In this document: positions 15,452 to 64,000 of the stretch, one piece after another
Layout of the letters: each line of letters opens with the position of its first letter
How positions within the stretch are numbered: position 1 is the first letter of the stretch
Virus record (IMG/VR): IMGVR_UViG_3300009184_000033
Span: 68,045 to 132,044 of that record
DNA length: 64,000 nt
Reading direction: 5' to 3' (one strand)
DNA from: a virus
The notes under the pieces: model-generated
What the model was told of the DNA's origin: nothing
Databases searched by the model: none
The model's input: the letters and a program-made list of their open reading frames with translations, nothing else
Translations under genes and position numbers: made by a program

Positions 15452-15649
15452 TTACTCCTCAGTCTTTCGATCCTTCTCGACCTCGAGGCTCTCCTTCACC
15501 AGGGCGGCAACCTCGGTCTTCAGGAGGCGAAGTCCCTTTCGGGCTCGAATGCCAGCACTGGCATTTCCATTCTCCTGCTTTGCAATGTCGAGGTCCAAGC
15601 TATCGACCAGGACCTTGATCTCTTCCCACTTGCTCTTTAGATTTGCCAT
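15452..15649 (-). CDS. Histone H1-like Hc1-family nucleoid protein
   Basis: GNASAGIRARKGLRLLK matches the GNxxAGxRARK core of short Hc1-like proteins. Confidence 0.7.
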   Translation of the reverse strand: MANLKSKWEEIKVLVDSLDLDIAKQENGNASAGIRARKGLRLLKTEVAALVKESLEVEKDRKTEE

Positions 15650-15659
15650 GTTGTCTCTC

Positions 15660-15899
15660 CTAAGTTATGATTGGACTGGAACTCTGAGCCTCGTCGAGTC
15701 CATCGAGCAGAGGCTTCACGACTTCCACGACGCCCTCAAGAGCGTCTCTATCTTCTAGCTCAAGGGCTAGCAAGTAGATTATCTTTGTGATCTGATACTG
15801 AGAAACTCCAAACTTGAGTATCTCTTGCGTAATCTCGCGAGACTTGATCGACTCTTCGACCCTCTTCTCGCCCTCAATCTGACCGTATAGCTTTGTCAC
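15660..15899 (-). CDS. Hypothetical protein
   Basis: GTG start overlapping upstream stop. Confidence 0.65.
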   Translation of the reverse strand: MTKLYGQIEGEKRVEESIKSREITQEILKFGVSQYQITKIIYLLALELEDRDALEGVVEVVKPLLDGLDEAQSSSPIIT

Positions 15900-16354
15900 A
15901 TATCCTCCGTGTTGAAGGGCTCGACCCTGAAGTTTGTCGGTCCATCAATCCGCAAGATCTTCCCAGAAGTTCCGCCCTCAAGCTCTTCACGGACCAGCGT
16001 TGTCCATGTTCCCCACTTCTGGTTGTGGAAAGCAAACTGGACTAGCTGCCAGGTCGCCAGGTCGCACGAATAAGACTCAAGGACGTTGGACAGAGATGTC
16101 GGAAGCGTCAGCTTGATGTCTTTTTCAGTGATCATCGACCTGAGCTCGTCTTTGCCGATCATGATTTCAGACTTACAGACGTCAGTGATCTTGTGGACAG
16201 CCCCGCAATTATTGCACTGTGCATGGGCCTGCTGGACCTTTCCCTCGTCATCAATGACACTGAAGACGACAAACTTGTGAAACACCTGATTCGGCTTGCC
16301 CTTTAGCTGGGGCAAGATGCACATACACTCGATCAGATGTTTTGTCCCCTCCAT
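15896..16354 (-). CDS. Hypothetical protein, possible Zn-binding
   Basis: CxC..C and CNNCG..H..C motifs. Confidence 0.7.
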   Translation of the reverse strand: MEGTKHLIECMCILPQLKGKPNQVFHKFVVFSVIDDEGKVQQAHAQCNNCGAVHKITDVCKSEIMIGKDELRSMITEKDIKLTLPTSLSNVLESYSCDLATWQLVQFAFHNQKWGTWTTLVREELEGGTSGKILRIDGPTNFRVEPFNTEDM

Positions 16355-16355
16355 G

Positions 16356-16589
16356 TCAGTTGTACAGTCTCACCAGCTGGTCAAGAGCAACAGTGCGGCT
16401 CTTCTCGTTGCAGACTCGAAGAAGCTCTGCAATCCTCTGTACCGACTCATCATCGAGCTTCAGTAGGCGTCGATTCTCTAAGATTGCCGTAAGAGACTCG
16501 TTTCGATTGATCTCAAACACGTCATTGATCATCTGGCCAACCTGGCCCTGCTTCGGACCAGAGGGCTGTGAACTTGCAGGCTTTAACAT
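16356..16589 (-). CDS. Hypothetical protein
   Basis: Start reassigned to ATG 16589 (AGGAG RBS); track start overlaps upstream gene. Confidence 0.55.
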   Translation of the reverse strand: MLKPASSQPSGPKQGQVGQMINDVFEINRNESLTAILENRRLLKLDDESVQRIAELLRVCNEKSRTVALDQLVRLYN

Positions 16590-16620
16590 TTTTATTGTAC
16601 TCCTGAGGAAGTCTAAGACA

Positions 16621-17127
16621 TTAAGCAGCGTTAGTAAATGCATTTTTGGTCTTTTTGTCCGCGAGACAGCTGGCAGCCCAAGACTCTGGCTTGATGATCG
16701 GCTTGAAACCCATTCCCTGGACATATGACTGGAGGCTCTTCTGGCAAACAGAAGATCCAGCAGAAGGGTCACTGTTGCAGTCCAGGTGGACTGAGATGTC
16801 GAGGCTCTCATTTCTGTCGCGAAGTGTCTGGGCAACTTCAAGCGAGTGTGAAGTCTCGAGCTCCAGCCTCTTCCTGAGATTTGGCACAGAGCTCTTCATG
16901 ATCTTCTCTCGAGACCAGAAGTACTTGCCACCACGTCCAGGTCGATAGAGGGCAATCACAGTGACGAAAGAGACCTGCTTGCCCTTGGGGTCAGAGTCAG
17001 TTCCAACGTGGAGCTCAGCACCGCTCGAGATTTCTTCAAGGACCTGGTCGATGATTTCATTGAAGTCGTACTCGACCTGAGCTCCAGAAAACCAGTTTCT
17101 GTCCTGAATGTTCTTATCTGGTATCAT
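16621..17127 (-). CDS. RNase H-like YkuK/DUF458-family protein
   Basis: LHVGTDS, ETSHSLEVA, VHLDCN, QGMGFKPIIKPESWAASCLAD. Confidence 0.8.
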   Translation of the reverse strand: MIPDKNIQDRNWFSGAQVEYDFNEIIDQVLEEISSGAELHVGTDSDPKGKQVSFVTVIALYRPGRGGKYFWSREKIMKSSVPNLRKRLELETSHSLEVAQTLRDRNESLDISVHLDCNSDPSAGSSVCQKSLQSYVQGMGFKPIIKPESWAASCLADKKTKNAFTNAA

Positions 17128-18424
17128 TTGCGATCACAGCTCCTATCTTTCTCATGGAATCTGCCAGCTCAGTGCCAATCTTCATTCCACTAACCAGAGA
17201 TCCAGCTGGCAAGGACCTAATTTTAGGTAGCAGATCAGAGGTGGAAATTCCCTCAACGTCTCCTGCTGAGATTCTACCCGTCAAACAGAACCCGTTTACG
17301 ATCCCAAGCGCAGAACGTATGCGGTCTTCGATAAGTCCAGACATCTCACCAACGCTGCGACCCAGCCAGATCTCAACAACGGCAGGGTTTAGGTTGGCCG
17401 CTCGATCCTCAAAGAGCTTACGCTTGTCTTCGACTTGCTCGCTTGCAGCCTGATCCAGAAGCCACCTGGCGTGTTCCCAGACGCTGTGGGAACGTTCAGG
17501 ATTTTCGATAGTGCACTCTCTTACGCTAGACACGATCCTCTTGACGCTTGGAATTTCTTCTAGCTTTATGCTCGAGATCAGGTCGCCCTTGAGCGGCGAG
17601 ACAGCCGAATGACCAATGCATACGCAAAGGTCACGGATCAAGTTTATCGTATCCAAGCTCGTGGGCACAATGTGCGGAATGACCCTCAGAGACCCTCTGA
17701 GGTAGTTCACTGCAAGTGTGTGGATTACTTCTGGTTCGAATCCCCGGGCAAACAGAAACAATCTGCGTTTGGTCTGTGAGTATGATTCGAGTATGTGGTT
17801 GATCTCTGAGACGGTGGTGACTACTCCATCGATTGCAGCAACGTCACAGTCGAGAAAATCAAAAGTCTTCTGGCCAGAGCCCTGGCAGAAATTTGGATCG
17901 ACCCCAGCTCCAAACCTGTAGCCCTCGTGGACTTTGATTCTGATGTCGAACTCATCAGATCTCTTCAGGCGAATTGTGCCAGAACTTCCCGCGGCGGCAA
18001 GGGCTTGTCTAACCACCGCGGTGGTGATGGGGCATGATGAGACATGAGATAACGCGGCATTGAGCTCATCTATGTCCATGAACCTCGAAGTGTGGCTGAT
18101 CTCATGCAGGTCCTTTTTACCAGATCCGAGATAAGATGACACGAATCCGCAGACCACAAAATAGCTGGATCCTGGAATCTTCCTCTCGGCTGAGACAATC
18201 GCCTCAATGAGCGCAGCCCTACAAGACCTTGCTGACATTGAATTCGCACGCTGTTCGTGGACGACACGAAGGCAATCAAGGTACTCGAGCCTCTCAGCGC
18301 GATTTCCAAATGAGACTGTGAGATGGCCATCACGAAGCTTCTTCACCGAAGCCTCAAGAGACTCAACCCATGAACGGATCTCGTCGTGGTGCTGGTCTCC
18401 TGAGATGGGAAGGCTATTTTCCAT
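17114..18424 (-). CDS. Highly divergent GroEL/chaperonin-like protein
   Basis: Apical-domain-like AIDGVVTTVSEINHILE..LFLFARGFEPEVIHTLAVN..IRDLCVCIG; no GDGTTT. Confidence 0.6.
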   Translation of the reverse strand: MENSLPISGDQHHDEIRSWVESLEASVKKLRDGHLTVSFGNRAERLEYLDCLRVVHEQRANSMSARSCRAALIEAIVSAERKIPGSSYFVVCGFVSSYLGSGKKDLHEISHTSRFMDIDELNAALSHVSSCPITTAVVRQALAAAGSSGTIRLKRSDEFDIRIKVHEGYRFGAGVDPNFCQGSGQKTFDFLDCDVAAIDGVVTTVSEINHILESYSQTKRRLFLFARGFEPEVIHTLAVNYLRGSLRVIPHIVPTSLDTINLIRDLCVCIGHSAVSPLKGDLISSIKLEEIPSVKRIVSSVRECTIENPERSHSVWEHARWLLDQAASEQVEDKRKLFEDRAANLNPAVVEIWLGRSVGEMSGLIEDRIRSALGIVNGFCLTGRISAGDVEGISTSDLLPKIRSLPAGSLVSGMKIGTELADSMRKIGAVIANDTR

Positions 18425-26462: not shown

Positions 26463-26804
26463 CTAGTACACATCGTATTCCGTTAGCTTGTCAGCCACTT
26501 CCTCGAGGAAACTTTCAGGGATCCCAACGTAACCGATGTCCTTCGCGGCTCTCTTCAGCTTGCGAACGTTGGTCTCTGCCTTCCTGGAGGGGCGCATCTC
26601 AAGGTCCATCATGGCATCAATAAGCTCCTGCTCCAGGTCCGCCCAGTCAATCTCTTCACCCTGGGGTGTGACGTAGTACTCGGGAGGAGACATAGGAGGG
26701 GGTGCGAGCGTTGACATCTCTGAGATACGACGTGAACGTGTGAGCTTGGAAGCTTCCTCGCGGATGATCTGACGAAGTCTCGTCTCTGTGAGTCTGATTG
26801 CCAT
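26463..26804 (-). CDS. Leader-family protein (MAIRLTETRLRQIIREE)
   Basis: Start reassigned to 26804, AGGAG RBS, ATAGTTA upstream. Confidence 0.75.
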   Translation of the reverse strand: MAIRLTETRLRQIIREEASKLTRSRRISEMSTLAPPPMSPPEYYVTPQGEEIDWADLEQELIDAMMDLEMRPSRKAETNVRKLKRAAKDIGYVGIPESFLEEVADKLTEYDVY

Positions 26805-28024: not shown

Positions 28025-28222
28025 TCAGCGCTGGCGTAAACGCCTGATGCCTTCCTTAATCCTCTTGATCGGCATGGCAAGGTTGTCTCCGCCTGCCCAC
28101 AAATCTTCCTCTGCTTCGACATCGGAGGGGTGGTCGACCTCGATTGGTGTCGCCTCGCCAGAGTGCTCCTGGCTGAGAGCTTCGCGGATGATCTTACGGA
28201 GCTGACGTACGGTGACCCTCAT
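28025..28222 (-). CDS. Leader-family protein (MRVTVRQLRKIIREA)
   Basis: Coupled to upstream gene, leader motif. Confidence 0.65.
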   Translation of the reverse strand: MRVTVRQLRKIIREALSQEHSGEATPIEVDHPSDVEAEEDLWAGGDNLAMPIKRIKEGIRRLRQR

Positions 28223-28824
28223 CTTGAGTCCACCGCGGGAGGTCCTTCCTGCCCATCTTCCTCTTCCTCTGGCTCTTCAGCGTCTTCGTCTTCTTCCTCG
28301 TAGTCTTCTTCCGAATCCTCGGCGTCATCATAGTCACTGATTTCGTACTCACCGGTGTCTGGGTCTTCCGTGTCTTCCTCGGAGTCCTCATAGTCCATGG
28401 AATCATCGGAGTCATCGTCCATGTCTTCCATGCCCTCACCACTCATGAGCGAAGATAGCATGCTTGACATGTCGCCAGAGTCCATCTCGTCAGATTCCAT
28501 GTCATCATCGCCATACTCGGAAGAGTAGTCTGCATCACCACCGCTTCGATCGATCTCGCCATGGAGGTAGTCTGACAGGCTCGTCATGTATGAGTCGGCG
28601 ACAGCCATCTTGCTGAGAACCCAAGCTGGCAAGTCATCGCCATCCTCAAGCGCGTCGTGGAGCTTTGTTGCCCTCGCTGCGATGTTCTTCAGCTGTGTAC
28701 GGGCCATGTCAGCATCACCTGAGTATCCAGGCGAGTGGTCGAAGTCCCGGCCCTGTTGGCCCTCAGCATGCTCACGAAGAGCTTTCCTGACAAAACTGCG
28801 GAGTGTGCTTATTCTAACTCTCAT
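28219..28824 (-). CDS. Leader-family protein with very acidic tail
   Basis: MRVRISTLRSFVRKALRE; MARTQLKNI..LPAWVLSKMAVADSY; D/E-rich C-terminus. Confidence 0.75.
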   Translation of the reverse strand: MRVRISTLRSFVRKALREHAEGQQGRDFDHSPGYSGDADMARTQLKNIAARATKLHDALEDGDDLPAWVLSKMAVADSYMTSLSDYLHGEIDRSGGDADYSSEYGDDDMESDEMDSGDMSSMLSSLMSGEGMEDMDDDSDDSMDYEDSEEDTEDPDTGEYEISDYDDAEDSEEDYEEEDEDAEEPEEEEDGQEGPPAVDSR

Positions 28825-52844: not shown

Positions 52845-53047
52845 TTGGAGCCTCCCTTCACGAAATTGTTGATTGCTTCGATTACAAGAGCTTCAAATCC
52901 AGCCTCGTCGCCTGGCTGAAGACCGAACCTTACGAAGAATTCGTCACTGCGATCATCATCGATTTCGAACACAAAGCGAGTCTTTCCATCAGCGTCAGTC
53001 TCTTCGTAGATCTGCTTCAGGCCTGGAATTTCACTCTGTGTTGCCAT
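52841..53047 (-). CDS. Hypothetical protein
   Basis: Start reassigned (AAGGA RBS). Confidence 0.6.
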   Translation of the reverse strand: MATQSEIPGLKQIYEETDADGKTRFVFEIDDDRSDEFFVRFGLQPGDEAGFEALVIEAINNFVKGGSK

Positions 53048-53369
53048 CTTGCTTGTTCCTTTCGTAGTCTTCGATCCACTTGATTGTGGATTCGAGATCA
53101 AGATTGATCTTCTCGTGGTCTCGGGACGGATCCTTGGCCCACTCGGATGCGAGCCAGCCCTCGACAATCTTGCGCCAGAGGGTCACGTCAATCCGGAGTC
53201 CAAGCTTCGGACGTGGTCCGTTGTCCTCCCGCCAGTCGACATTTGCTGTATCAAGAGATGCTGCCCATCCATCGCCGTCAAGCTGGAGATAGACGTTATC
53301 ATTCTCGAAGCATTCTTGGTAGAAGTGGAAGTCTTTCTGATCGAAAGCGATCGTGCATCGTGTACTCAC
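53031..53369 (-). CDS. Hypothetical protein
   Basis: ATGA-coupled. Confidence 0.65.
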   Translation of the reverse strand: MSTRCTIAFDQKDFHFYQECFENDNVYLQLDGDGWAASLDTANVDWREDNGPRPKLGLRIDVTLWRKIVEGWLASEWAKDPSRDHEKINLDLESTIKWIEDYERNKQDGNTE

Positions 53370-54060: not shown

Positions 54061-55086
54061 TTATGCAAGTACCGAGGCGTCTACACCAACGTCTGCATCT
54101 GCCCTATCGTACTTCTTCTTGATCCAGTCAGTTATTATCTTGTTGATGTTGATGTCTGCGATCGATTTATCTGGGCTGTCTTTAGCGATCTTCCTCAGCT
54201 CTCCAACATACCACTTGATGTACTCAGCTTCGAGCTTGTCATCAAGGACATCCTCGAGGTCATCATTGAGCTGTAGAGCCTTTCCAAACTTCCCAAGCTG
54301 ATCATTGTCTGGTCCCTTTGCGATCTTCTCGGCAAAGTCAGCAAACTTCTCGTCGGGTGACTGTTGGGACTTCCTAAACGAGGCAAACAGAGACTTGATC
54401 TTGCCTCCGACCTCGACAGCCTTCTTGATCATCTGGTAGCCAGCAACAAGCTTGTCGCCATATGGGATGAGCTTAACGGCTTGCTCTACGAGCTTCTTGA
54501 TTGCCTGCTTCAGCGCCGATGTGAAGACGGTGTCGACTAGCCCCTTGAACGTCTCGTTGCTTGTGTACAGGTCCTTGAGTCCCTTGAAGTGGTCTAGAAC
54601 ATCAGTTATCTGCTCTTTCTTGTTACCCCAAAGCCACTGGAGAGACTTCTTGATATCGTCGTACTTCTTCTTAGCCTCTCTCCAGGCGCTCTGTAAATCG
54701 ACGCCGTACTTCTTCAGGTCAGTGAACCATTCCAGCATCTCCTTCACGTCGTCCTTGTTAGAAGAAGCTAGCTCTGCCGCCTCTTTGGACTTTTTGATCA
54801 TGGCGCTGATGTTCTCTGGCGCATATTCTTCGGCAAACTCAAGTGCTTCCTTGATGAAGTTTGCCATGGAATCATCCATGTCGCTAACGGTCTCGTCAAA
54901 GGAGGCTAGCAAATCTCCGACAGTCATGCCAGCCTCGAGCATCAGCATGTCGGTCTCGTGTTCAAGAATGACGATTCGAAGGTCTTCAGATCTCAGCACC
55001 TCTCTCACCAGGCGTGAGCTTCGGTGTGCTGGGCGAGAGTCCATAAGTTGCTCACGGATGAGAGCGCGAAGGTACTTCTCTTCCAC
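54061..55086 (-). CDS. Leader-family helical protein
   Basis: YLRALIREQ..RLVREV..VILE..LMLEAG. Confidence 0.7.
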   Translation of the reverse strand: MEEKYLRALIREQLMDSRPAHRSSRLVREVLRSEDLRIVILEHETDMLMLEAGMTVGDLLASFDETVSDMDDSMANFIKEALEFAEEYAPENISAMIKKSKEAAELASSNKDDVKEMLEWFTDLKKYGVDLQSAWREAKKKYDDIKKSLQWLWGNKKEQITDVLDHFKGLKDLYTSNETFKGLVDTVFTSALKQAIKKLVEQAVKLIPYGDKLVAGYQMIKKAVEVGGKIKSLFASFRKSQQSPDEKFADFAEKIAKGPDNDQLGKFGKALQLNDDLEDVLDDKLEAEYIKWYVGELRKIAKDSPDKSIADININKIITDWIKKKYDRADADVGVDASVLA

Positions 55087-55093
55087 GATTCTC

Positions 55094-56332
55094 TTACCTC
55101 TTCTTCTTTGGCGGCAGGCTGACGCCTTTCCGGCGGCTGTATTTTATGGTGTAGTCGTCCTGCCACTCAGCGTCATAGAGCTGTGCTCTCATGGTTTTTA
55201 TTGGATCATGTCCACGAACTGAACTCCATTTGCGGGGAGTCATATTCTTTAAGAGCTCAGGGTTGTCATTACCATAGTAGCCAAAATATGGCTCGCCAGA
55301 GAACTTGATGGCGCCAGACTCAGAGTCTCCCGTGACCTCCTTGTCAGACCATGGCAAGTCAAAATACACGTCTTCTGGATTCGACCTGTTGTATGAGTCT
55401 GCAAATGATGCAATCTCTCGCGGGACATCGCCCCACATCTGGTACACCTTGCAGGTGAGCTGTGCTCCAGATTTCACGATGACCTCTCCCTCACCGCCGT
55501 GCTCTGAGTTGACTTCGATGTTGTCGAAATCCACGATGGTGTCCTCTGGATTGACTACAGCACCGATTATGTAGCCACCTTTCTCTGCGTAATTCTTACC
55601 AGACTTTGCTCTGGCGGCCCACTGCATCATTGCCTCGTACTCAGATCCGGCTGATGACATCGTGGCAAAACGCTCTGCGACGCTCTTTGATTTCGTCCAC
55701 GCGCTGGGCTTATCCTGCTGGAATGGGAACGGCCTCTTGCCATCTCCGTACTTTTCTGCAAAGTCGAGGAGGTCCACGACCTCCCTGAATCTGATGCCAC
55801 GGTAGAGGACAGTGCGCTCCTGCATGCGGTACGGCTCGAGGTCAATTACGTACTCTGGCCTCGGCTCTGGCATGCCATAGCCGTTGGTGTTCTTCCACTG
55901 CCTGAGCCACTTCTTAGATCCGAGAGCAGGAGCACCACGACCCTTCTTCTTGCCGACGGTGGAGCGGATCTTCAGCGCGCGCTTGATGATCGGCAACTTG
56001 TCATAGTTGTTCCTGACAAAGCCAAGCGGGTCCAGACTGCGATTCCATTCTATGCGAACTGCGACGTCAGGCTCGTTCATCAGCGCCTTGGCTTCCTGGC
56101 TGTTCTTGAAAGCCTCGAAAGCCGGCGCAAATTTCGCTGCCAGCTCTTTGTTGGAATCTTCGAACTGTGGCGCCCACATGTGGCCTGCATCCACTCTCGT
56201 CAACATAGCCTTGAGCGCGGTAGCAGCCTCACCCGATCCGAACATCAGGTCGTAGACTTCGCCGGCAGAGAGACCCTTGCTCTCTAACATGATCCTGTGG
56301 AGGATTCTCTCTATTAGCGTCTCTCTCATCAT
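55094..56332 (-). CDS. Leader-family protein with ADP-ribosyltransferase-like domain
   Basis: MMRETLIERILHRIMLES; VLYRG, SAWTKS..VAERFA, HGGEGEVIV (R-S-E); start at ATGA overlap. Confidence 0.65.
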   Translation of the reverse strand: MMRETLIERILHRIMLESKGLSAGEVYDLMFGSGEAATALKAMLTRVDAGHMWAPQFEDSNKELAAKFAPAFEAFKNSQEAKALMNEPDVAVRIEWNRSLDPLGFVRNNYDKLPIIKRALKIRSTVGKKKGRGAPALGSKKWLRQWKNTNGYGMPEPRPEYVIDLEPYRMQERTVLYRGIRFREVVDLLDFAEKYGDGKRPFPFQQDKPSAWTKSKSVAERFATMSSAGSEYEAMMQWAARAKSGKNYAEKGGYIIGAVVNPEDTIVDFDNIEVNSEHGGEGEVIVKSGAQLTCKVYQMWGDVPREIASFADSYNRSNPEDVYFDLPWSDKEVTGDSESGAIKFSGEPYFGYYGNDNPELLKNMTPRKWSSVRGHDPIKTMRAQLYDAEWQDDYTIKYSRRKGVSLPPKKKR

Positions 56333-56610
56333 GATGCCTCTGGTGGCATCACATGGACGCCGCCCGGAACTTTGTTGATGGTCCAGCCACGTTGGGTGAG
56401 CTGATTCACGAGAATTGGATTTGGGAGATCGATCGTGTATCCGCCAGTCTCTGCGAGATTCACAGCCTCGATAGCGCCTGCTGGATCCCACTGGGAGTAT
56501 GCTTCGCGAAGGATGCCAAGGGTCCTGTCGGGATTGGGGTTGTATTCTCCATAAGAACCCTCGCCAAGCAGGAATCCACGTGTCATGTCGCGGAACTGGT
56601 TGCTGTTCAT
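56329..56610 (-). CDS. Small hypothetical, leader-like (FLLGEG)
   Basis: GAGGA RBS; start reassigned. Confidence 0.6.
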   Translation of the reverse strand: MNSNQFRDMTRGFLLGEGSYGEYNPNPDRTLGILREAYSQWDPAGAIEAVNLAETGGYTIDLPNPILVNQLTQRGWTINKVPGGVHVMPPEAS

Positions 56611-56617
56611 CTTATCC

Positions 56618-57133
56618 TCACTTTTTCTTCTTTGACTTCTTGACGACAGCCCAGGACTTTGATGGGTTCGCAGAGTTGACCCTCGCCATGGCCCACTGGT
56701 GCTGTGACATTCCCTTCCGTGAGCCAGACCTCGCCCATGCCGCAAGTCCCTTCTCATACTCAGTGTACACAGAACCTGGGGTCAGACCGCGTTTCTCTGC
56801 CTTCTTCTTCAGGGTCTCTTTGGTCTTCTTGGAGAGGGCTTCTACTACGATCTCTTGGATGAGATCAAGCAAGACCTCATGCCCCTCTTTCTGCGAGTCA
56901 GGTCGCGGCTTTGACTCGAACCCAGGCTTCTCGCGCTCCTTCTTCTCCATGCGCTCACGGCGAGCATACGCCCGCTTGATCCTCTCTGGGTCACCAGACT
57001 CCAGATCAGCCTTCGTCATGTCAAGCTGCTTGTCCCGCTTGCTGCCCTCAGGAGCATCATACTGCGGAGGATTTTTGGCCTCCAGCAGTTCTTCCTGTAT
57101 GATCTCTCGCAGCCTGCTCTCTGTGATTTTCAT
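56618..57133 (-). CDS. Leader-family basic protein (MKITESRLREIIQEELLEA)
   Basis: K/R-rich; C-terminal WARSGSRKGMSQHQWAMARVNS. Confidence 0.8.
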   Translation of the reverse strand: MKITESRLREIIQEELLEAKNPPQYDAPEGSKRDKQLDMTKADLESGDPERIKRAYARRERMEKKEREKPGFESKPRPDSQKEGHEVLLDLIQEIVVEALSKKTKETLKKKAEKRGLTPGSVYTEYEKGLAAWARSGSRKGMSQHQWAMARVNSANPSKSWAVVKKSKKKK

Positions 57134-57144
57134 CGAGATTCCAC

Positions 57145-57789
57145 TCAGCCCGATGTATCGATTTCATAGTAGGCGTAGATGCGACCTGAATCGGGGTCTC
57201 GGTACATCTCGAACTTCCACATAGGGGCGCCAGAGAACCTGCTCTGCAGCCACTTCACCGCCTCTTCATCAGAGAGACCCTCTGGCGCGAAGGCAGTGCC
57301 GATATCGGTGTGACCATAGGTGGGACGACCGGCGCCGAGTCCATTCGGTGACATGTTCCTGATGATCATGCCGCCGACACGGAGCTTGTCATCAGCGCGC
57401 CGCTGCTCCTCAGCGCGGGCATTTTCTGCCGAAGTGTGGGAACTCACCGCATCGATGAAGTCCTGGCCTGAGGGACAAGTCCCAGCCTTCGACATCTCAC
57501 CAGCCTTCTGGACGTGGAATGCGATCGCATTGCGAGAGATGCCAGTGGCCTGGGAGATCTGGTCGCAGATCTCGCCCTTGTTTCCACCGGCTCCGAAGAC
57601 CAGACCTGCGCCCATCTCGCACATCATGTCCCAGGCCTTTGCGAGGTCTTGGTGGAGCTCCGTGTCGTTCGGGTGGAGCTTGAACTGTCGCAGCCAGCTT
57701 CGCGTGGTCATGTTTTTCTCGAGGTCCATGGGCGACTCCATGATAGTGCGCCTGATGATCTGGCGAAGTTGCGACTCTGTGATTCTCAT
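57145..57789 (-). CDS. Leader-family protein (MRITESQLRQIIRRTIMES)
   Basis: AGGAG RBS; own ATATTTA motif. Confidence 0.8.
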   Translation of the reverse strand: MRITESQLRQIIRRTIMESPMDLEKNMTTRSWLRQFKLHPNDTELHQDLAKAWDMMCEMGAGLVFGAGGNKGEICDQISQATGISRNAIAFHVQKAGEMSKAGTCPSGQDFIDAVSSHTSAENARAEEQRRADDKLRVGGMIIRNMSPNGLGAGRPTYGHTDIGTAFAPEGLSDEEAVKWLQSRFSGAPMWKFEMYRDPDSGRIYAYYEIDTSG

Positions 57790-57807
57790 GAGATCTCCTA
57801 TCGAGTG

Positions 57808-57814
57808 TAAATAT
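57808..57814 (-). promoter_or_regulatory. ATANTTA motif
   Basis: 18 nt upstream of 57789. Confidence 0.55.
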
Positions 57815-57931
57815 ACCCGCGTGCGGGTTCATTGTGAGCTTGTTCTCTGGCGCGCGTATCAGGTTCCTTGTACAGATCCTTTGATACACTGAGCGAGAAG
57901 CGGACACCCCCTGCGGAAACTATTGCGACTT

Positions 57932-58402
57932 TTAGAAGTCGCGGAGGTCTTCCCTGATGAGGGACCGTATGAGGTGCAGTAGGCTGGATTCGTTGGTCGA
58001 ATCTCCGTCTATTGTCCCTATCTGGCTCGGGTGCGGGTATAGCATGATCCCACGACATCCCGGCGGGAGGTTGTCAAGCTCCTCTTCATCGTCATCGTGA
58101 TGAAGTCTTGAGCCTATTTTGGCGAGAGTGTCCCTCTTCAGCTTGCCGTTCGTGAAGTGGATCTTCGCTATCCCGTCGAGGACTTTCCACTTCCCAAGCC
58201 ACTCGATCGTGTCGTTTCGCATCTTCTCGTAACGGGTGGTGACGATGTGGACCTCGTGGCCGTCACTGATGGCCCGCTTCAGGAGAGCAAGTCCCTCTGG
58301 ATTGGGGCCATCGACAACCACCTCATCTATCTCACCGTCCTCGTCACGGACGTACCTCTTCCAGAGGAGGGTGTCATCGAAATCGAAAGTGACTACGCTC
58401 AT
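57932..58402 (-). CDS. HAD-superfamily phosphatase with C-terminal leader-like tag
   Basis: VTFDFDDTL, IVTTR, LHHDDD; ends NESSLLHLIRSLIREDL. Confidence 0.75.
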   Translation of the reverse strand: MSVVTFDFDDTLLWKRYVRDEDGEIDEVVVDGPNPEGLALLKRAISDGHEVHIVTTRYEKMRNDTIEWLGKWKVLDGIAKIHFTNGKLKRDTLAKIGSRLHHDDDEEELDNLPPGCRGIMLYPHPSQIGTIDGDSTNESSLLHLIRSLIREDLRDF

Positions 58403-59089
58403 TACTCTAGCTTCCAGAGGTACATCTTGCGCACTGTGATCGGACCCATGCCGATCGCCTCCATCTCGTCCTCGACTGTTGGCACACCATCCATCTCATA
58501 GAGGGGAGCACAGTCAAAGAACTTGAGTGGGTTGGCCGCGAGATCCGGCGCAATAGATTACGCCGACAGGCCCCTTTCTGCCGTAGGATGTAGTGCCAGC
58601 AGCGTAGTTCCACACGATACTCGATGTGTCGTCTCGGCTACCGAGCTCGGCGGTAGACCACGAAGAAGCCCATCCTCCTGCAGGTGGGTTCACCACACGG
58701 GGCTTGGTGGAGGCAGCAATCTGATCGACTGGTGCGCTCTTGTACCAGTTCGAATAGCCCAGCGCCTTAAGGTCCTCGAGAGTGATGTTGATGCCCCTGT
58801 AAACAGAGGGCACCTCAGGCTCCATGAAGACGTCAGAGTAGATTCCCTTCTTCATGAAACTCTGGATGAGATTGCACTCAGCGCGAGGCAACAGTGGATT
58901 ATCAGTGAAGTGGTTGATGAGGGCATCGTAGAGCGCCTGTTCCTTCGGCTTGTTCGGCTCAGGCGGGACACTGTCCCTCTGGTCAGCGAACGCCCACCTG
59001 CCAAGGGCAGATCTCGGAGAAGCCGCCCCCTCCATGTCTTCCGTCTCTTCCCTGATGATCCGCCTGAACTGCGACTCTGTGATTCTCAT
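58402..59089 (-). pseudogene. Frameshifted leader-family ADP-ribosyltransferase-like gene
   Basis: MRITESQFRRIIREE, VYRG, ASSWST in frame 1 (stop at 58514); second frame from 58551 gives APDLAANPL..VEDEMEAIGMGPI..LE* whose TAA overlaps next ATG. Confidence 0.7.
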
Positions 59090-59120
59090 TTTATCTCCTG
59101 CCGAAGCATTCAGCGGCGTG

Positions 59121-59693
59121 TTACTCAACCCAACCCATGCGCATCCTCGTGCTGGTGGCATCGGCGGCCTTCTGTTGGGCTGGAGTCATCTTCATGCGCT
59201 TCAGCAGTGTCTCTGCAGACTCCAGGGTCCGGAGTATCTTCTTGAAAGAGCGGGTTAGCTCTGCCTGGAGGGGTTCGTCACTGGGGAACAGGAGCTTGTT
59301 CACCTGTACGGTGACGGTCTTCCGGGAGAGCTTGTTATAGTAAATGAGGTCTCGCAGGCGCAGGAAGTTACCCCTCAGCGCCGGCCTGTCCTGTGCCTCG
59401 ACGTTCTTGTCCATCTCGGACTTGATCTCATCGTATGCGGGCTCAATCACGTTGACAAGCTCCTCACCGAGCTCCTGAAGGGCCTCGCCGTGGTACCAGG
59501 CCTTCTGCTTCTCACCAGGTGTGAAACCGACTCCCCTCTTCACCGGCGCCTGCATGATTGCATCTCGGTCATCCTTGAACTTCTTCAGGATTGCCTGACG
59601 CTCCCCACGCTTTGCGGTGTACTCGGGAGTCTCGATGCTCTCGAGGATCTCCTGTCGGACGATCTTGCGTAGCTGCGACTCTGAGATTCTCAT
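59121..59693 (-). CDS. Leader-family protein (MRISESQLRKIVRQEILES)
   Basis: AGGAG RBS. Confidence 0.8.
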   Translation of the reverse strand: MRISESQLRKIVRQEILESIETPEYTAKRGERQAILKKFKDDRDAIMQAPVKRGVGFTPGEKQKAWYHGEALQELGEELVNVIEPAYDEIKSEMDKNVEAQDRPALRGNFLRLRDLIYYNKLSRKTVTVQVNKLLFPSDEPLQAELTRSFKKILRTLESAETLLKRMKMTPAQQKAADATSTRMRMGWVE

Positions 59694-59701
59694 GTTATCT
59701 C

Positions 59702-60097
59702 CTATACGTGCTCGATGTCCATATCATGAAGGATCATCTGTGTTCCATCCTCCAACTTCACGTAGTGGTGACGGTACTCCTCTCGACCTCCCGGCCCAGG
59801 AACCACGACACCCTCCATCCCGTTGGCGTTCTTGTACTTGTCGGAATGGATTCTTCCAGGTGCTCCCTTCGGCATGTTGACGTTGAGGTTGATCCTCACT
59901 GCATCTCCGTGCTTGAAGAACACCTTCTGTTTCCACACAGGACTGTATAGATCACGCCAGTCATCGCTCTCCCTTCTCTTGAAAGTATCGGTCCACGGAC
60001 GTCCGGGAATGTTCCTCATGATGTCGTCATCGTACTCGGATTCCCTCAGGATCTCCTCACGGACGATCTTGCGAAGCTGTGATTCTGTGATTCTCAT
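59702..60097 (-). CDS. Leader-family protein with KOW/SH3-like C-terminus
   Basis: MRITESQLRKIVREEILRES; FKHGDAVRI..GVVV..YVKLEDG. Confidence 0.8.
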   Translation of the reverse strand: MRITESQLRKIVREEILRESEYDDDIMRNIPGRPWTDTFKRRESDDWRDLYSPVWKQKVFFKHGDAVRINLNVNMPKGAPGRIHSDKYKNANGMEGVVVPGPGGREEYRHHYVKLEDGTQMILHDMDIEHV

Positions 60098-60121
60098 GTT
60101 TGTTACCCAGGAGTAGAAATG

Positions 60122-60454
60122 TCAATATTGTCCGCGAGAATAATCGGGCTTTAGTCTTCCCCAGTACTTGCCAGTCTTGGGATCCCTGTAAACCAGTATG
60201 TTTTTGTGTGAACCCGTGCGGCCTCCCAGCACAACGGTGTTGTATGCAGCCTCAGGGCTAGGGTAGAGCATGTACCCTCCATATACGGGTTCATCTATAA
60301 CTGGTTCCCCGTTTGGAAGTCTGTAGTTCGGTCCGATCACCTCGGTCTTCGGTTCAGGATAGCGCTTCTCGAAGGGCAAAGTGTTCCAGTCTTCCTCATC
60401 GTCATTGAACATTTCACGAATTAGATTCCTGAGCTGGGATTCAGTGATTCTCAT
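60122..60454 (-). CDS. Leader-family protein (MRITESQLRNLIREM)
   Basis: Start reassigned; GGAGAG RBS; ATAGTTA upstream. Confidence 0.8.
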   Translation of the reverse strand: MRITESQLRNLIREMFNDDEEDWNTLPFEKRYPEPKTEVIGPNYRLPNGEPVIDEPVYGGYMLYPSPEAAYNTVVLGGRTGSHKNILVYRDPKTGKYWGRLKPDYSRGQY

Positions 60455-60473
60455 TCTCTCTCCAATACTCGAG

Positions 60474-60480
60474 TAACTAT
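60474..60480 (-). promoter_or_regulatory. ATANTTA motif
   Basis: 19 nt upstream of 60454. Confidence 0.55.
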
Positions 60481-60752
60481 ACTGCCGCCGGTGAAATTTC
60501 ACCATCTGTGCCGACAGACGTGCCGACAGACGTGCCGACAGACGTGCCGACAGGCACGAGGTTGCGCGGGTGGTAGGAGACCACCCGCCCCTCGAAGAGC
60601 ACGTCGACGGCGCCGTCAGGCGCCCAGACCTGCCGCTCGCGGTCGGTGGGCCCGATCACCACGCCCAGCCCCGCCGGGTTCTTCGCGTGCGGGCTCCGCC
60701 GGCGCACCAGCGTCCCCGCCTCGATCCCCACCACGCCCGGCGTGTCCGGCAT
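60477..60752 (-). CDS. Small KOW/SH3-like protein with VGTS repeat tail
   Basis: EAGTLVRRR..LGVVIG; AGGAGG RBS; start reassigned. Confidence 0.6.
   Translation of the reverse strand: MPDTPGVVGIEAGTLVRRRSPHAKNPAGLGVVIGPTDRERQVWAPDGAVDVLFEGRVVSYHPRNLVPVGTSVGTSVGTSVGTDGEISPAAV
60508..60553. repeat. 12-bp tandem repeat (gtgccgacagac) x3.8
   Basis: Exact copies at 60508, 60520, 60532, partial at 60544. Confidence 0.95.
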
Positions 60753-60827
60753 CTCGCCTCCTGCTGGGATATAATCAGGCGCGTGACCGCAGGTCACCCC
60801 GCCGGAAAAAAATCCGGCCGGCGCCGC

Positions 60828-61118
60828 TCAGCCCCGCCGCACCCGGCATGCCGCACTGAAGGCGTCCCACACCGCCCAGTGGGCCTCGGCGTCCCGGGAT
60901 CCCAGGTCCTCGGCACCCGCGAGCACCGCATCGAGCCGCCTCTGCCCGTCGAGCACCGCGTCGCGGACCTCCGCGAGGATCCCGTCGATCTCCTGGTCGA
61001 CCCGGTCGCCGTAGAGCCCGTACTTGCTCCCGCCGAAATCCATGTCGTCGTGTGACTCGGCGAGGCGCCTCGCCTCGTCCCGCACGATCCGCCTCAGCCG
61101 TGACTCCGTGATCCGCAT
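60828..61118 (-). CDS. Leader-family protein (MRITESRLRRIVRDEARRLAES)
   Basis: AGGAG RBS; ATAGTTA upstream. Confidence 0.75.
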   Translation of the reverse strand: MRITESRLRRIVRDEARRLAESHDDMDFGGSKYGLYGDRVDQEIDGILAEVRDAVLDGQRRLDAVLAGAEDLGSRDAEAHWAVWDAFSAACRVRRG

Positions 61119-61140
61119 CTCTTGAACTCCTGTACGCGAG

Positions 61141-61147
61141 TAACTAT
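61141..61147 (-). promoter_or_regulatory. ATANTTA motif
   Basis: 22 nt upstream of 61118. Confidence 0.55.
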
Positions 61148-61352
61148 ACCGACCCGGTGGCATGTGTGGATGCAATGAAAGTGCACCGGTGCGCTGTCAT
61201 GCGGGGGCCCGCAGGGCCCCGGCCAGCCGCCGCCTTGGATTCCATGGCATGCCGGACGGGTGAACCACGCGGGGCACGGGAGTTGGCATGCTGTCTCCCC
61301 ATCGGTGGCATGCATGACCCCGCGCGCGGGGAGGCCGGGGGACCCGGCGGGG

Positions 61353-61533
61353 CCCAAAAATCTCCCGGGAAAAAATCGGGCACGGGGGCACACGGGACTC
61401 TCGTTCCCGCGCGGGAAATCGGGTACCTCGGGAGAATCGGGAAGGGGTGGGCCCAGTGGAAGCCAAAATTTTCTCGGGAAAAACCAGACTCGAGAAGCCC
61501 AGTCAAAGCCAAAAAGTTCTCGGGAAAAAAAAG
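61353..61533. repeat. Three imperfect A-tract repeats CCAAAA-N-(C/T)CGGGAAAAAA
   Basis: Copies at 61353, 61462, 61508 in a GC-rich non-coding stretch. Confidence 0.75.
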
Positions 61534-61642
61534 AATTCCACCTTAGCCAGGCCTCCCCGCGAGGCCCCCGACAGAGCATGCAGCGGGCCCCCAGAGGGGG
61601 GCCCCCTGGGCCCATTTTTGGGGGCCCTCGAGGGGGCCCCTC

Positions 61643-61754
61643 TGTAACGTTACAATGGCCCCCTGCGGGGGGCTAAATAACATGTTACAGGGGGTGTAAC
61701 ATTGGGCCCCATTGTAACGTTACAATCACTGGGGTGTAACCCTGTAACGTTACA
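61643..61754. repeat. Cluster of TGTAACGTTACA palindromes and TGTAAC half-sites
   Basis: Full at 61643, 61713 (16-bp ATTGTAACGTTACAAT), 61743; GGGGTGTAAC at 61691, 61731; TAACATGTTA at 61678. Confidence 0.9.
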
Positions 61755-61755
61755 C

Positions 61756-62109
61756 TCACCACGCCGCTGGGTAGCGGTCCACGTCCGCCTCCCAGTCACG
61801 GCAGGCGTCGGCCTCGCGGCCGTGGGCCAGGAGCTCCTGCGTCATCTCCTCCCACTCCTCGGCGGTGCGCTCCCGCCAGTCGTACCCCCGGGCGCGGAAG
61901 TTGCGGACCTCCTTGTGCGTCTCCGCCCAGTCGCAGTAGGCGAGGTAGCTGTCGAGCTCGGCGCCCGTGTGCACCCCGGACTCGGCCCAGTACTCCGCGC
62001 TCTCGGGCAGGGTCCCGTAGAAGGTGAGACCCATCGCCTCCGCCCGGGCGATCGTGGCGAGGTTGCGCTCCGCGGCGCGGGTGGCGGCGGTGGTGGTGTT
62101 GCTGGTCAT
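61756..62109 (-). CDS. Hypothetical protein (probable early gene)
   Basis: AGGAGG RBS within repeated cassette. Confidence 0.75.
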   Translation of the reverse strand: MTSNTTTAATRAAERNLATIARAEAMGLTFYGTLPESAEYWAESGVHTGAELDSYLAYCDWAETHKEVRNFRARGYDWRERTAEEWEEMTQELLAHGREADACRDWEADVDRYPAAW

Positions 62110-62114
62110 CTCTC

Positions 62115-62158
62115 TGCCTCCTGAGATCTGTTATTCTGGCGAGATGCGGGTGGGAAGG
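62115..62158 (-). promoter_or_regulatory. Repeated promoter/RBS cassette, copy 1
   Basis: CCTTCCCA-N14-GAATAACAGATCTCAGGAGGCA. Confidence 0.75.
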
Positions 62159-62198
62159 TCCGTGCGGGATTTATTTTGTGCCGCGCCCGGAGCGCAGT

Positions 62199-62405
62199 TC
62201 ACTGCGCTCGGTAGATCGACTGGAGACCGGCGTTCTTCGCGTCCCGCTCGTTGTAGTACCCGCCGCCGGACCAGGTCCCCTTCGGGCCCGTCACCTCGAA
62301 GTGCCACCCGAAGCGGGCCACCTTCCAGGTGGTGAGGGTCCAGCCCGGGAAGTTGTTCACGAAGACGTCGAGGTCGAAGGTCTTGACACTGAGTCGGGTC
62401 TGCAT
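62199..62405 (-). CDS. Hypothetical protein (probable early gene)
   Basis: Preceded by cassette copy 2. Confidence 0.7.
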   Translation of the reverse strand: MQTRLSVKTFDLDVFVNNFPGWTLTTWKVARFGWHFEVTGPKGTWSGGGYYNERDAKNAGLQSIYRAQ

Positions 62406-62407
62406 GT

Positions 62408-62451
62408 TGCCTCCTGAGATCTGTTATTCCGGTGGGACCGCGCTGGGAAGG
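62408..62451 (-). promoter_or_regulatory. Repeated promoter/RBS cassette, copy 2
   Basis: Identical 22-mer and 8-mer, same 14-nt spacer. Confidence 0.75.
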
Positions 62452-62467
62452 ATGCGCGGGACTTATT

Positions 62468-62704
62468 TCAGGCCGCGCTCATGAGCTTCTTGACGCGCTG
62501 TCCCTGCTCCTTGATGACCTCGCCGGTCTTCGTGTCCACCATCTCCAGCGCCCAGTAGGCACCGGCGGACGACTGCTCGTGGTGGAAGACCGCCTTCGCG
62601 ACCAGGAGCTGGCGGACCGGGAACCAGCTGAAGGGCTGGTACTCGACCATGTCGCCGACCGAGTAGCTGACGAGGGTCTTCGTGTTCGTGACTTCGCGGA
62701 TCAT
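62468..62704 (-). CDS. Small KOW/SH3-like protein (probable early gene)
   Basis: SYSVGDMVEY; preceded by cassette copy 3. Confidence 0.7.
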   Translation of the reverse strand: MIREVTNTKTLVSYSVGDMVEYQPFSWFPVRQLLVAKAVFHHEQSSAGAYWALEMVDTKTGEVIKEQGQRVKKLMSAA

Positions 62705-62709
62705 TCTGT

Positions 62710-62753
62710 TGCCTCCTGAGATCTGTTATTCTCGCCGCACCCAGTTGGGAAGG
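62710..62753 (-). promoter_or_regulatory. Repeated promoter/RBS cassette, copy 3
   Basis: Identical 22-mer and 8-mer, same 14-nt spacer. Confidence 0.75.
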
Positions 62754-62848
62754 AGGAACTTGCACAATTTTGTCCGCGCGCAGCGTTGCCCGGCGCGCCC
62801 CCGATTTCCAGCAGGCCATGGTGACCTATTGGCCAGGGGCCAGCAGCC

Positions 62849-64000
62849 TCAGGCGGCCTTTGCGGCCGGCCACTTCATCTTGATGACCACGTCGTTCGAC
62901 TGGGGCTTGAACTGGAGTTCACCGCCCGGGGTGATCAGCCAGCACCGGCGGGCGACGCAGGGACCGGGGTCCGAGGCGTACCCGTCCGTGATGATGATGC
63001 CGCCGTCGAACTCGTCCCGGCTGGCGACCAGGTGCTTGCTCGGCGCGCTGAAGTCCGTCCCACCGGTGCGGGTCCGGGTCGGTCCCTTCGCCTTGCCGCG
63101 CTTCCATTCCGCCTTGGACTTCAGGTCGACCTCGGTGTCGAAGTGGAAGGTGGTGAACGACGTGAACTTGGTGAAGGCCTCGAGCTCCCCGAATGCGAGG
63201 GCGAGCTCGTCGTCCCCGACCGAACCCGACTGGTCGATGTAGACTGCGAGCGAGGAGGTGTACCCGCGCTTCGCACCGGTCGCGAGGCCCGGCATCCGCT
63301 TGTTCAGGCGGGACCAGGAGGTCGTCCGGCTGCCGCGGCGGGAGTTCCCGACGAAGTGCTTCAGGACCTCCTGCCAGGGGACCTCATTGGCGAGCATCGC
63401 ACGGATGTTCTCGCGCATCTCGGCCGAGACCGAACCCCACTGGCCCTTGGAGTCGCAATCGCTCGCCGCACGGCGGACGATCTCCTTGAGCTTCGCCTTC
63501 GCCATGGCCTTGGACTCGGCGGACTCATCGCCGGCGGCGTCCCCATCGGACGGGTCGCCACCCCAGTCCCCGTGGTCGTCCATCTCACCGGCGCCACCGG
63601 CACCATTCTCGATCGTGTCCGCAATCTCGGGGTCCGCCATGAACCGGGCGAAGTACTCCTCTGAGGAGAGACCCTTGGGCAGGTCGCGGATGAAGTCCGA
63701 CAGCTTCTGCCAGCGGGCGACCGCCTCGGCACCCATCTTCGCCTGCTCCTTCGCGGTCAGGGGCTTGAACGCCTCACCGGGGATGAGGCCACAGTCCGGG
63801 AGGAGTTCCCGGGCGATCTGGGAGTTGATCGCGCAGTCGGTGGAGTAGTTCCACACCCGGTGGGGTTCGTGGCGTCGGGTCGTACAGTGCTCGTAGACCA
63901 GGTGCAGGCACTCGTGGATGTTGAGACCTTTGACCTTGCCGGCGGACTGCTTGGCGAGCGTCGCGAGGAACTTCGGGTTCCAGTAGAACCGGATGTCGCC
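62849..64000 (-). CDS. DUF2201-type HEXXH metallopeptidase + VWA protein, 5' end outside window
   Basis: Frame open to 64000: YWNPKF..IHECLH..WNYSTDCAIN; VYIDQSGSV (MIDAS), GGTDF, IIITDGY. Confidence 0.88.
   Translation of the reverse strand, partial: GDIRFYWNPKFLATLAKQSAGKVKGLNIHECLHLVYEHCTTRRHEPHRVWNYSTDCAINSQIARELLPDCGLIPGEAFKPLTAKEQAKMGAEAVARWQKLSDFIRDLPKGLSSEEYFARFMADPEIADTIENGAGGAGEMDDHGDWGGDPSDGDAAGDESAESKAMAKAKLKEIVRRAASDCDSKGQWGSVSAEMRENIRAMLANEVPWQEVLKHFVGNSRRGSRTTSWSRLNKRMPGLATGAKRGYTSSLAVYIDQSGSVGDDELALAFGELEAFTKFTSFTTFHFDTEVDLKSKAEWKRGKAKGPTRTRTGGTDFSAPSKHLVASRDEFDGGIIITDGYASDPGPCVARRCWLITPGGELQFKPQSNDVVIKMKWPAAKAA

Follow-up and report, generated by a model that had tools for sequence, protein, structure and literature searches.

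Internal proteins in the T-even phages form a very varied group and have only a capsid-targeting sequence (CTS) in common (PMC3012670). The passages on T4 in PMC3012670 and PMC5694885 place this short N-terminal peptide on IPII and IPIII (MKTYQEFIAE), on IPI and on Alt, and describe its removal by the protease gp21. Alt is packaged into the head by means of an N-terminal propeptide that gp21 processes (PMC5694885), and the annotation of the T4 record likewise has Alt processed by gp21 and entering the host with the DNA. Here we describe a locus at 54061-61118 of a 64,000-nucleotide stretch of viral DNA (the window; positions 68,045 to 132,044 of IMG/VR record IMGVR_UViG_3300009184_000033), where seven genes with largely unrelated products begin with the same short peptide, which we call the tag. 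We put the probability at roughly 65% that the tag is a capsid-targeting propeptide that is removed by the head protease while the cargo behind it is carried in the head.

Work on the T4 CTS is reportedly that of Mullaney and Black in 1996, and the (L/I)-x-E motif of T4 is said to have been described by Black, Showe and Steven in 1994. A second system is found in the phiKZ-like giant phages (phiKZ, 201phi2-1 and SPN3US), where a protease related to gp21 cleaves the propeptides of inner-body and ejection proteins, its motif being (S/A/G)-x-E (PMC5694885, PMC10052503); S77-family proteases cut C-terminal to Glu (PMC5694885). The phiKZ-like phages resemble the present case in being jumbo phages whose protease is related to that of T4 and cleaves behind Glu, and in having many head-internal proteins with N-terminal propeptides that are thought to act in targeting, SPN3US gp53 and gp54 being paralogues with identical N-termini. 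They differ in that their propeptides are mostly longer than 100 residues and that few proteins are processed (8 of about 50 in SPN3US); these belong to paralogous families, and no portable short tag on unrelated bodies has been described for them. The preference at P3 is also different, A, S or G there and L or I here. We found no paper that describes the tag itself. The targeting principle is not new: it is that of the T4 CTS, here altered and greatly extended.

The window makes up the right-hand 64 kb of one viral contig, which is 132,044 bp long. Since this length corresponds to a completeness of only about 39% according to CheckV, the phage is probably a jumbo phage; to judge from its genes it is an uncultured T4-like myovirus. 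Genes for a T4-type virion module occupy the left part of the contig, where the head genes between portal and capsid take up contig 8619-18290. The module has a gp23-family major capsid protein (PF07068, E=5e-80), a gp20 portal (PF07230, E=4e-79), a Peptidase_S77 (gp21-type) prohead protease (PF03420, E=8e-26), a large terminase and a tail sheath; capsid, portal and S77 protease are the head components of the T4-type internal protein and Alt system, and all three are present. The protease is 31% identical to T4 gp21 (E=3e-21) and retains the GE..HP and G(I/V)SSRG(V/L)GS stretches, the site of the catalytic His and Ser, and it is intact. The closest deposited capsid proteins are those of an uncultured 484-kb phage, Flavobacterium phage immuto, Microcystis phage Mel-JY01 and Rhodothermus phage RM378, with less than 50% identity to all four.

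The tagged genes lie in a compact run of twelve minus-strand genes (54061-61118; coordinates are those of the window unless the contig is named). When the six frames of the window were searched with the strict pattern [MVL][RK]I[TS]E[ST][QRK][LFI][RK]xx[IVL][RKQ], exactly seven matches were found, all on the minus strand, with starts at 61118, 60454, 60097, 59693, 59089, 57789 and 57133 (genes A, B, C, D, E, G and H). A hidden Markov model built from the seven copies scores them at 34.6-40.9 bits, whereas the best unrelated six-frame segment in the 132-kb contig reaches about 6 bits, and thus the recurrence of the tag is not due to chance. Most tag ATGs have an AGGAG-type ribosome-binding site 6-10 nt upstream, which fixes the tag starts even where the open frame extends further upstream. 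The consensus is MRITESQLR(R/K)I(I/V)R(E/Q)E followed by 3-6 semi-conserved residues that close in (L/I)xE.

A reading of this DNA made from its letters without database searches (the sequence-only reading) had counted seven genes with a shared leader and three with variants of it, and both counts stand, the three variants being genes I, J and K. It had also called the bodies behind the leader unrelated, and this is largely so: BLAST joins only B and G, indirectly and by way of a common C-terminal motif, and finds no other link between bodies. As in T4, then, a short N-terminal peptide is common to unrelated proteins in a phage with a gp23/gp20/gp21 head module. The tag is 17-21 residues long, about twice the 10 residues of the T4 CTS, and it heads at least 10 and up to about 14 genes in this incomplete contig, whereas in T4 a scan for the exact decapeptide gave two matches, which lie at the ipII/ipIII locus. 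We found no sequence similarity between the tag and MKTYQEFIAE as read from the T4 record, and we regard the tag as an analogue of the T4 CTS, not a homologue.

Conservation of the seven copies could in principle reside in the nucleic acid, either as an element for translation initiation or mRNA stability or as a patch of homology by which gene cassettes are swapped in recombination, and the peptide would then be without a function of its own. The arrangement of the genes as cassettes would suit such an element, gene A even having its own promoter-like site and a terminator-like hairpin, and the sharp differences in GC content between neighbouring genes (0.71 for gene A as against 0.49-0.58 for most array genes) indicate that exchange between phages occurs. 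However, when the first 15 codons are compared, identity among the seven copies is 69% at the protein level and 67% at the DNA level, and 51% of the codon pairs that encode the same residue use different codons. Third codon positions are 52% identical, compared with 75% for first and second positions; serine is encoded by TCA, TCC, TCG and AGC and arginine by AGA, CGG, CGC, AGG and CGT. The peptide is kept in GC-rich form in gene A, in an AT-rich version in database members (MKITKSQLKQIIKEE), and at the C-terminus of some proteins. Selection acts on the peptide, not on the DNA, and we regard conservation at the nucleic-acid level as very improbable. The codon divergence also rules out a recent DNA duplication as the source of the seven copies, as it does a purely nucleic-acid element.

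The T4 protease motif is (L/I)-x-E, and the tag ends in the same sequence motif. Its conservation is near-absolute at residues 1-15, partial at residues 16-21, and then ends. Among 135 database representatives, 87% have [LI]xE with its Glu at residues 16-25, as against 5-9% in four later 10-residue windows. Since the search profile could itself favour hits with [LI]xE, a set of 38 distinct proteins was picked on residues 1-9 alone; here the figure is 82%, with 3-13% in the later windows. In both sets the residue after the closing Glu is mostly S, A or G, and an excess of G, P, A, S and D at residues 22-31 gives that stretch the look of a linker. In proteins with the exact 20-residue tag MRITESQLRKIVREEILRE(S/T), similarity stops directly after the tag. 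The tag and the T4 CTS thus both end in hydrophobic-x-Glu, often followed by a small residue. In the array itself, the sequence-only reading had most of the leaders closing in (L/I)xE before S or A; this is the case in A, C, D, G and H, and it does not hold for B and E, which have only the IRE that ends at residue 14.

Between the protease and capsid genes lie small genes without a family match, and two of these also start with the tag motif. The first encodes p157 (contig 13941-14414; MMSKLSRDELKSIVKECLVEILSE↓G, the arrow here and below standing after the last residue of the tag or propeptide), and the second p91 (contig 13604-13879; MSRNVRSLTPALLRKIVLEERAKLME↓V, with the motif ..SLTPALLRKIVLEERAKLME↓V). 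Homologues of both adjoin the S77 gene in four related contigs with the motif kept, and in the p157 homologues L, K, KEC, E and the closing E-G are invariant. A profile of 23 cargo tags aligns with the p157 N-termini from tag residue 1 onward (hhalign probability 82%, E=1e-5), and p91 shares with the cargo tag the pattern [IL]T...L[RK][RK]I[IV].EE, whose chance expectation in such a proteome is ~1e-5 by our own estimate from residue frequencies. From this in-register likeness, the cargo tag looks like the N-terminal module of the phage's own core proteins, which links it to components of the prohead core. The T4 CTS is different in this respect, the tag here being visibly related to two conserved N-termini of the head module.

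The presence of the motif on p157 and p91 would also be expected if tagged proteins entered the prohead as core or scaffold proteins needed only for assembly, to be degraded and expelled like gp22, gp67 and gp68 of T4. That the tagged protein of 28219-28824 has a long, very acidic tail fits this idea, as do the small size of many tagged proteins and their lack of any enzyme domain that can be recognised. However, the bodies, unlike structural scaffolds, show extreme diversity and change from one related phage to the next, and some are enzyme-like, with an ADP-ribosyltransferase (ART)-like fold in J and HD, GDSL and tRNA-ligase CPD domains in database members. Moreover, (L/I)xE is concentrated at the end of the tag, not spread through the bodies. 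We therefore consider a role in assembly only unlikely.

Two further proteins of the head module may be compared here. The major capsid protein (contig 8619-10517, outside the window) has 632 aa as against 521 aa for T4 gp23, with ~240 extra residues rich in Gly, Ser and Thr between its N-terminal block and the gp23 core, and its Pfam match falls into two parts, 3-119 and 94-364. When its N-terminus is aligned to T4 gp23, with the T4 cleavage position as reference, VLRE↓V lies 26 residues ahead of the conserved VRR block, compared with 32 residues for the corresponding spacing in T4 gp23; the capsid propeptide would end near VLRE↓V. Adjoining the capsid gene is a gene for a 613-aa acidic, coil-rich protein that looks like a scaffold. 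Its N-terminus, MSINIFQEAVIE↓A, alone in this phage has a start (..FQEAVIE↓A) that resembles those of the T4 CTS and gp22, MKTYQEFIAE↓A and MLKEQLIAE↓A.

The tag is not confined to this phage. A profile of it matches 917 clusters at E<=0.001 among 1.84 billion representatives clustered at 50% identity, a number that we treat as a lower bound, so that the tag heads at least 917 protein clusters, another difference from the T4 CTS. In 134 of the best 150 clusters the match begins at residue 1. An unfiltered profile was needed for this result, as a word-prefiltered homology search with residues 1-40 of gene C returned 15 proteins only; homologues of gene C in metagenomes bear the same tag. The bodies of 166 tagged proteins, with a median length of ~120 aa, fall into 115 groups not linked by BLAST, 82 of them singletons, and only ~6 of 142 tagged proteins have any Pfam domain (HD, RelB-like antitoxin, zinc ribbon, tRNA-ligase CPD, GDSL lipase and Tudor). 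Searched for as degenerate DNA, MRITESQLRxI turns up at 23 loci in IMG/VR, where by our own estimate ~0.05 would be expected by chance, and at none in 596 Gb of bacterial and archaeal genomes, so that every hit is in viral sequence. The tagged genes number 10, 6 and 5 in related contigs and differ in their cargo. Beside the array of one such contig stands a homologue of the window gene 53031-53369, so the locus seems to be conserved and its content variable. Weaker tag matches, 19 in all, are present in the uncultured 484-kb phage LR756508, several of them just upstream of the capsid gene.

Body modules are shuffled among the proteins with the exact tag MRITESQLRKIVREEILRE(S/T): P0002 is tag+X, P0005 is tag+X+Y and P0008 is tag+Y, and LLE↓A precedes module Y in both of the proteins that have it (P0005 and P0008). 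Five proteins from public metagenomes (P0016, P0018, P0027, P0047 and P0117) are single frames with two complete units of tag and cargo, in which the internal Met is retained; they may be polyproteins, lost stop codons, or proteins of phages in which a stop codon is translated as sense. The tag can also stand at the C-terminus. Gene F of the array, a HAD-like protein without an N-terminal tag, ends in a tag-like sequence (...SSLLHLIRSLIREDLRDF / ...SLLHLIRSLIREDLRDF), and a HAD-like enzyme related to it in type, in contig G007 (L041 15054-15653), ends in ...VTESRLRQIIRNSLL. A 244-aa gene (L039 11469-12203) starts with MRIGIFGGGFKPFTSGHF and ends in ...SENTLRRAIRAMIMVG. Together with the two HAD-like genes it makes up the enzyme-like genes in tag arrays that have a tag-like peptide at the C-terminal instead of the N-terminal end. 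That a HAD-like enzyme bears the tag at its end is in keeping with an address peptide whose position does not matter. Occasional positions at the C-terminus or inside two-unit fusions set the tag apart from the T4 CTS.

Encapsulin cargo-loading peptides usually lie at the C-terminus; no protease removes them, and it is the shell protein itself that they bind. The encapsulin system resembles the one proposed here in that short portable peptides send unrelated proteins into a shell of the HK97 fold, and in that the tag, too, can be C-terminal; it differs in that no encapsulin is involved here. Taken at its broadest, our reading is that the tag would be an address peptide of ~20 residues, confined to viruses and indifferent to position, which came from the N-termini of prohead core proteins and was fused to about a thousand unrelated families across uncultured T4-like jumbo phages, some of them two-unit or multi-module chains joined at (L/I)xE protease sites. 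The heads of this lineage would then be programmable vehicles for protein delivery with a huge, fast-turnover and almost wholly uncharacterised effector repertoire that includes an ART class unrelated to Alt in sequence. For this broad version we regard the chances as evenly balanced.

That ART-like protein is the product of gene J, on a minus-strand gene at 55094..56332 (412 aa) with a variant tag (MMRETLIERILHRIMLES / MMRETLIERILHRIMLE↓S). J has six relatives, and all seven proteins keep LYRG(I/V)RF and HGxEGEVI unchanged. The S-x-S stretch is conserved as SAWTKS, or TSWSTS in the most distant member, so that the core motifs of the family are YRG, SAW(T/S)xS and EGEVI, which are the R / S-x-S / E-x-E motifs in the order found in ADP-ribosyltransferases. 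The relatives also keep an N-terminal helix that ends in ILLE↓G or FLVE↓A. An AlphaFold model from the family alignment has a pLDDT of 62; a model from the single sequence (pLDDT 35) was unusable. For residues ~130-305 of the former, VIA-align hits are almost exclusively ARTs (Z 4-6), including Arr, diphtheria toxin, Vis, C2-I, SpvB, C3 and VIP2, and the best Foldseek hits are PARP catalytic domains, which are weak (E ~0.02). Searches against PDB sequences (phmmer and profile) gave nothing meaningful, a related-locus search in IMG/VR found no relatives, and a protein atlas search returned only unnamed viral clusters and a lead to DUF4765. The assignment of J as ART-like is thus of moderate strength: of the sequence-only reading's "ART-like", the motifs are there, the fold matches are modest, and a match to a Pfam ART family or to T4 Alt is absent. 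J joins a tag-like helix ending in LxE to an ART-like domain and in this parallels Alt, so that one cargo is an ADP-ribosyltransferase in T4 and ART-like here; the two differ in length (412 aa vs 682 aa for Alt) and have no detectable homology.

If the tag is a removable capsid-targeting propeptide, it would work as follows. The tag, probably an amphipathic helix, would make the protein to which it is fused co-assemble with the prohead core, as p157 and p91 would do. Once the shell has closed, the S77 protease would cleave the tag off behind the Glu of its final (L/I)xE, leaving the mature cargo to stay in the head with the DNA and most likely to enter the host with the genome, like IPI-III and Alt of T4. 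The cargo set would comprise an ADP-ribosyltransferase-like enzyme, basic proteins and many small proteins without a known family. What we infer is that the tag binds the core and is cut off, that the cargo stays in the virion and is ejected from it, and that it acts as an effector. A packaging tag had been proposed by the sequence-only reading, which also called for a search for the prohead protease; that protease was found, and the proposal came through every computational test able to break it.

A different use of the same helix would be as a docking or oligomerisation element that is not removed and binds a partner other than the capsid, such as a chaperone, a modifying enzyme or a host target. 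Short conserved amphipathic N-terminal helices can serve many purposes, and packaging is itself a proposal here. A maturase of the radical-SAM type would have been one such partner, but no match to PF04055 was found in the 132-kb contig, about 39% complete, with positive controls, and the neighbours of the array include no modifying enzyme. A docking helix would also leave unexplained why the tag resembles head-module proteins in register, and why a protease-type motif stands exactly at the end of its conserved part in phages that encode an S77 protease in 5 of 5 cases. We consider it distinctly unlikely. Two other candidates were rejected. A signal peptide of the Sec, Tat or lipoprotein type, in which a short charged N-region precedes at least 10 hydrophobic residues, does not agree with a tag that is charged throughout, with R, E, K or Q at 9 of its first 15 positions and no hydrophobic run. 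A leader for a co-encoded radical-SAM/SPASM maturase does not agree with the lack of a PF04055 match in the roughly 39% complete contig or of such an enzyme among the array neighbours.

Several points weigh against a capsid-targeting propeptide. The case is known from sequence alone, whereas the function of the T4 CTS has been demonstrated, and with no likeness to MKTYQEFIAE the function is assigned by analogy. Since the conserved part has (L/I)xE of its own, as ITE at residues 3-5 and as IRE at residues 12-14, the sequence leaves the actual cut position ambiguous, and B and E have no (L/I)xE at residues 16-25. An S77 protease is encoded in 5/5 long tagged contigs, a co-occurrence that stands without a measured background rate. 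In 50,697 records of cultured and deposited phages, tblastn with a 25-aa tag and an AT-rich two-tag protein found no convincing tag in cultured phages and only weak hits, in LR756508, a search in which the low-complexity filter may hide some matches. For J, the fold matches are modest (Z<=6.1, on the pLDDT 62 model), there is no Pfam hit at E<=1 and so no Pfam ART family, and comparison of the J family with T4 Alt by hhalign found no relation (probability 0.1%).

Finally, the promoter-like motif [GT]ATA[GTC]TTA[CT], which occurs 14 times as against 8.5 in shuffled sequence and stands 13-40 nt upstream of starts in 10 of the 14 cases (among them sheath, portal, A, B, G and the gene starting at 26804), is weak evidence for late expression, even though it is shared with sheath and portal. 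A promoter of the T4 late type is not established, the motif being short and overlapping with sigma-70-like -10 boxes.

The genes of the array are, in the order in which they are read, as follows, all on the minus strand. Gene A (60828..61118, 96 aa, start 61118) has the N-terminus MRITESRLRRIVRDE and the tag MRITESRLRRIVRDEARRLAE↓S, closing in LAE↓S. Next is an untagged gene (60477..60797, 106 aa, GC 0.70), within which a perfect 12-nt tandem repeat of 3.8 copies (60508-60553) encodes the C-terminal GTSV repeats of the protein. Gene B (60122..60454, 110 aa, start 60454) has the N-terminus MRITESQLRNLIREM and the tag MRITESQLRNLIRE↓M, and gene C (59702..60097, 131 aa, start 60097) the N-terminus MRITESQLRKIVREE and the tag MRITESQLRKIVREEILRE↓S, closing in LRE↓S. 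Gene D (59121..59693, 190 aa, start 59693; N-terminus MRISESQLRKIVRQE, tag MRISESQLRKIVRQEILE↓S) closes in ILE↓S. Gene E (58514..59089, 191 aa, start 59089) has the N-terminus MRITESQFRRIIREE and the tag MRITESQFRRIIRE↓E, and its body has no Pfam or PHROG family match. Gene F (57932..58402, 156 aa), which lacks an N-terminal tag, has weak HAD-phosphatase-like matches.

Gene G (57145..57789, 214 aa, start 57789) has the N-terminus MRITESQLRQIIRRT and the tag MRITESQLRQIIRRTIME↓S, closing in IME↓S, with the promoter-like GTATATTTAC 26 nt upstream. Gene H (56618..57133, 171 aa, start 57133; N-terminus MKITESRLREIIQEE, tag MKITESRLREIIQEELLE↓A, closing in LLE↓A) matches DUF5824. Some bodies had been called basic from the letters, and this agrees with H, which is very basic (pI 9.8), and D (pI 9.4); most of the other cargo is acidic. 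Gene I (56329..56610, 93 aa) has a weak variant N-terminus (MNSNQFRDMTRGFLLGEG / MNSNQFRDMTRGFLLGE↓G), and its membership in the tagged set is uncertain. It is followed by gene J and by gene K (54061..55086, 341 aa), helical and acidic, with a variant N-terminus ((V)EEKYLRALIREQLMDS / (V)EEKYLRALIRE↓Q) and weak matches to tape-measure-like PHROG families. Apart from H, and the weak HAD-like and tape-measure-like matches of F and K, the array cargo has no family match in Pfam or PHROG.

A second cluster of tagged genes lies at 26.4-28.8 kb, again on the minus strand. The first (28219..28824, 201 aa, start 28824) begins with MRVRISTLRSFVRKALRE↓H and continues into the very acidic tail mentioned above (pI 4.1). 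The second (28025..28222, 65 aa, start 28222) begins with MRVTVRQLRKIIREALSQE / MRVTVRQLRKIIRE↓A, and the third (26463..26804, 113 aa, start 26804) with MAIRLTETRLRQIIREE; a tag nearly identical to that of the third, MAIRLTESRLRQIIREE, is present in the related contig G007. This cluster, the tag-like C-terminus of F and the untagged gene at 60477-60797 go beyond what the sequence-only reading had listed, which slightly understated the observation.

Other features of the window and of related contigs border on the arrays. The region 60477-64000, which includes gene A and the untagged 106-aa gene, has a GC content of 0.63-0.71 as against ~0.53 for the rest of the contig, and looks like a recent acquisition from a phage or host of higher GC. 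Within it, a 48-nt direct repeat, 75-83% identical, recurs about every 300 nt (62112-62159, 62405-62452 and 62707-62754); it contains AGGAGG, lies directly upstream, on the minus strand, of the small genes 61756-62109, 62199-62405 and 62468-62704, and is the common 5' region of further small gene cassettes without a shared peptide. The GC-rich stretch 61150-61760 has open frames in several phases and no convincing gene; it contains a 38-nt repeat in three copies, a 23-nt repeat in three copies and palindromes around TGTAACGTTACA, and may be regulatory or origin-like. In the related contigs, a tag followed by a stop after 17 residues (MRITESQLRKIVREEYR*; L039 14959-15207 / L025 6921-6953) has the look of a cassette that has decayed or been truncated. 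Between the tagged genes of L039 and L041 (contigs G006 and G007), many short frames translate like tRNA genes (e.g., ...GIEPTTSSVSERRSNQLSYEP), which suggests that tRNA genes are interspersed with cargo arrays in related phages; the window has no tRNA gene.

If the tag does act as a capsid-targeting propeptide, it would mark, by sequence alone, about a thousand families of proteins that are candidates for delivery from the virion in jumbo phages of the environment; a known domain is present in fewer than 5% of them. This would give a direct route to factors for host takeover and anti-defence in the first minute of infection that genome annotation does not otherwise single out. The tag would also mean a second, longer and possibly stronger packaging signal for engineered delivery of proteins in phage heads. 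For the T4-like phages as a family, the capsid-targeting principle of T4 would be general and evolvable, each lineage having a tag of its own that is similar to its core proteins, and this similarity suggests how such tags arise.

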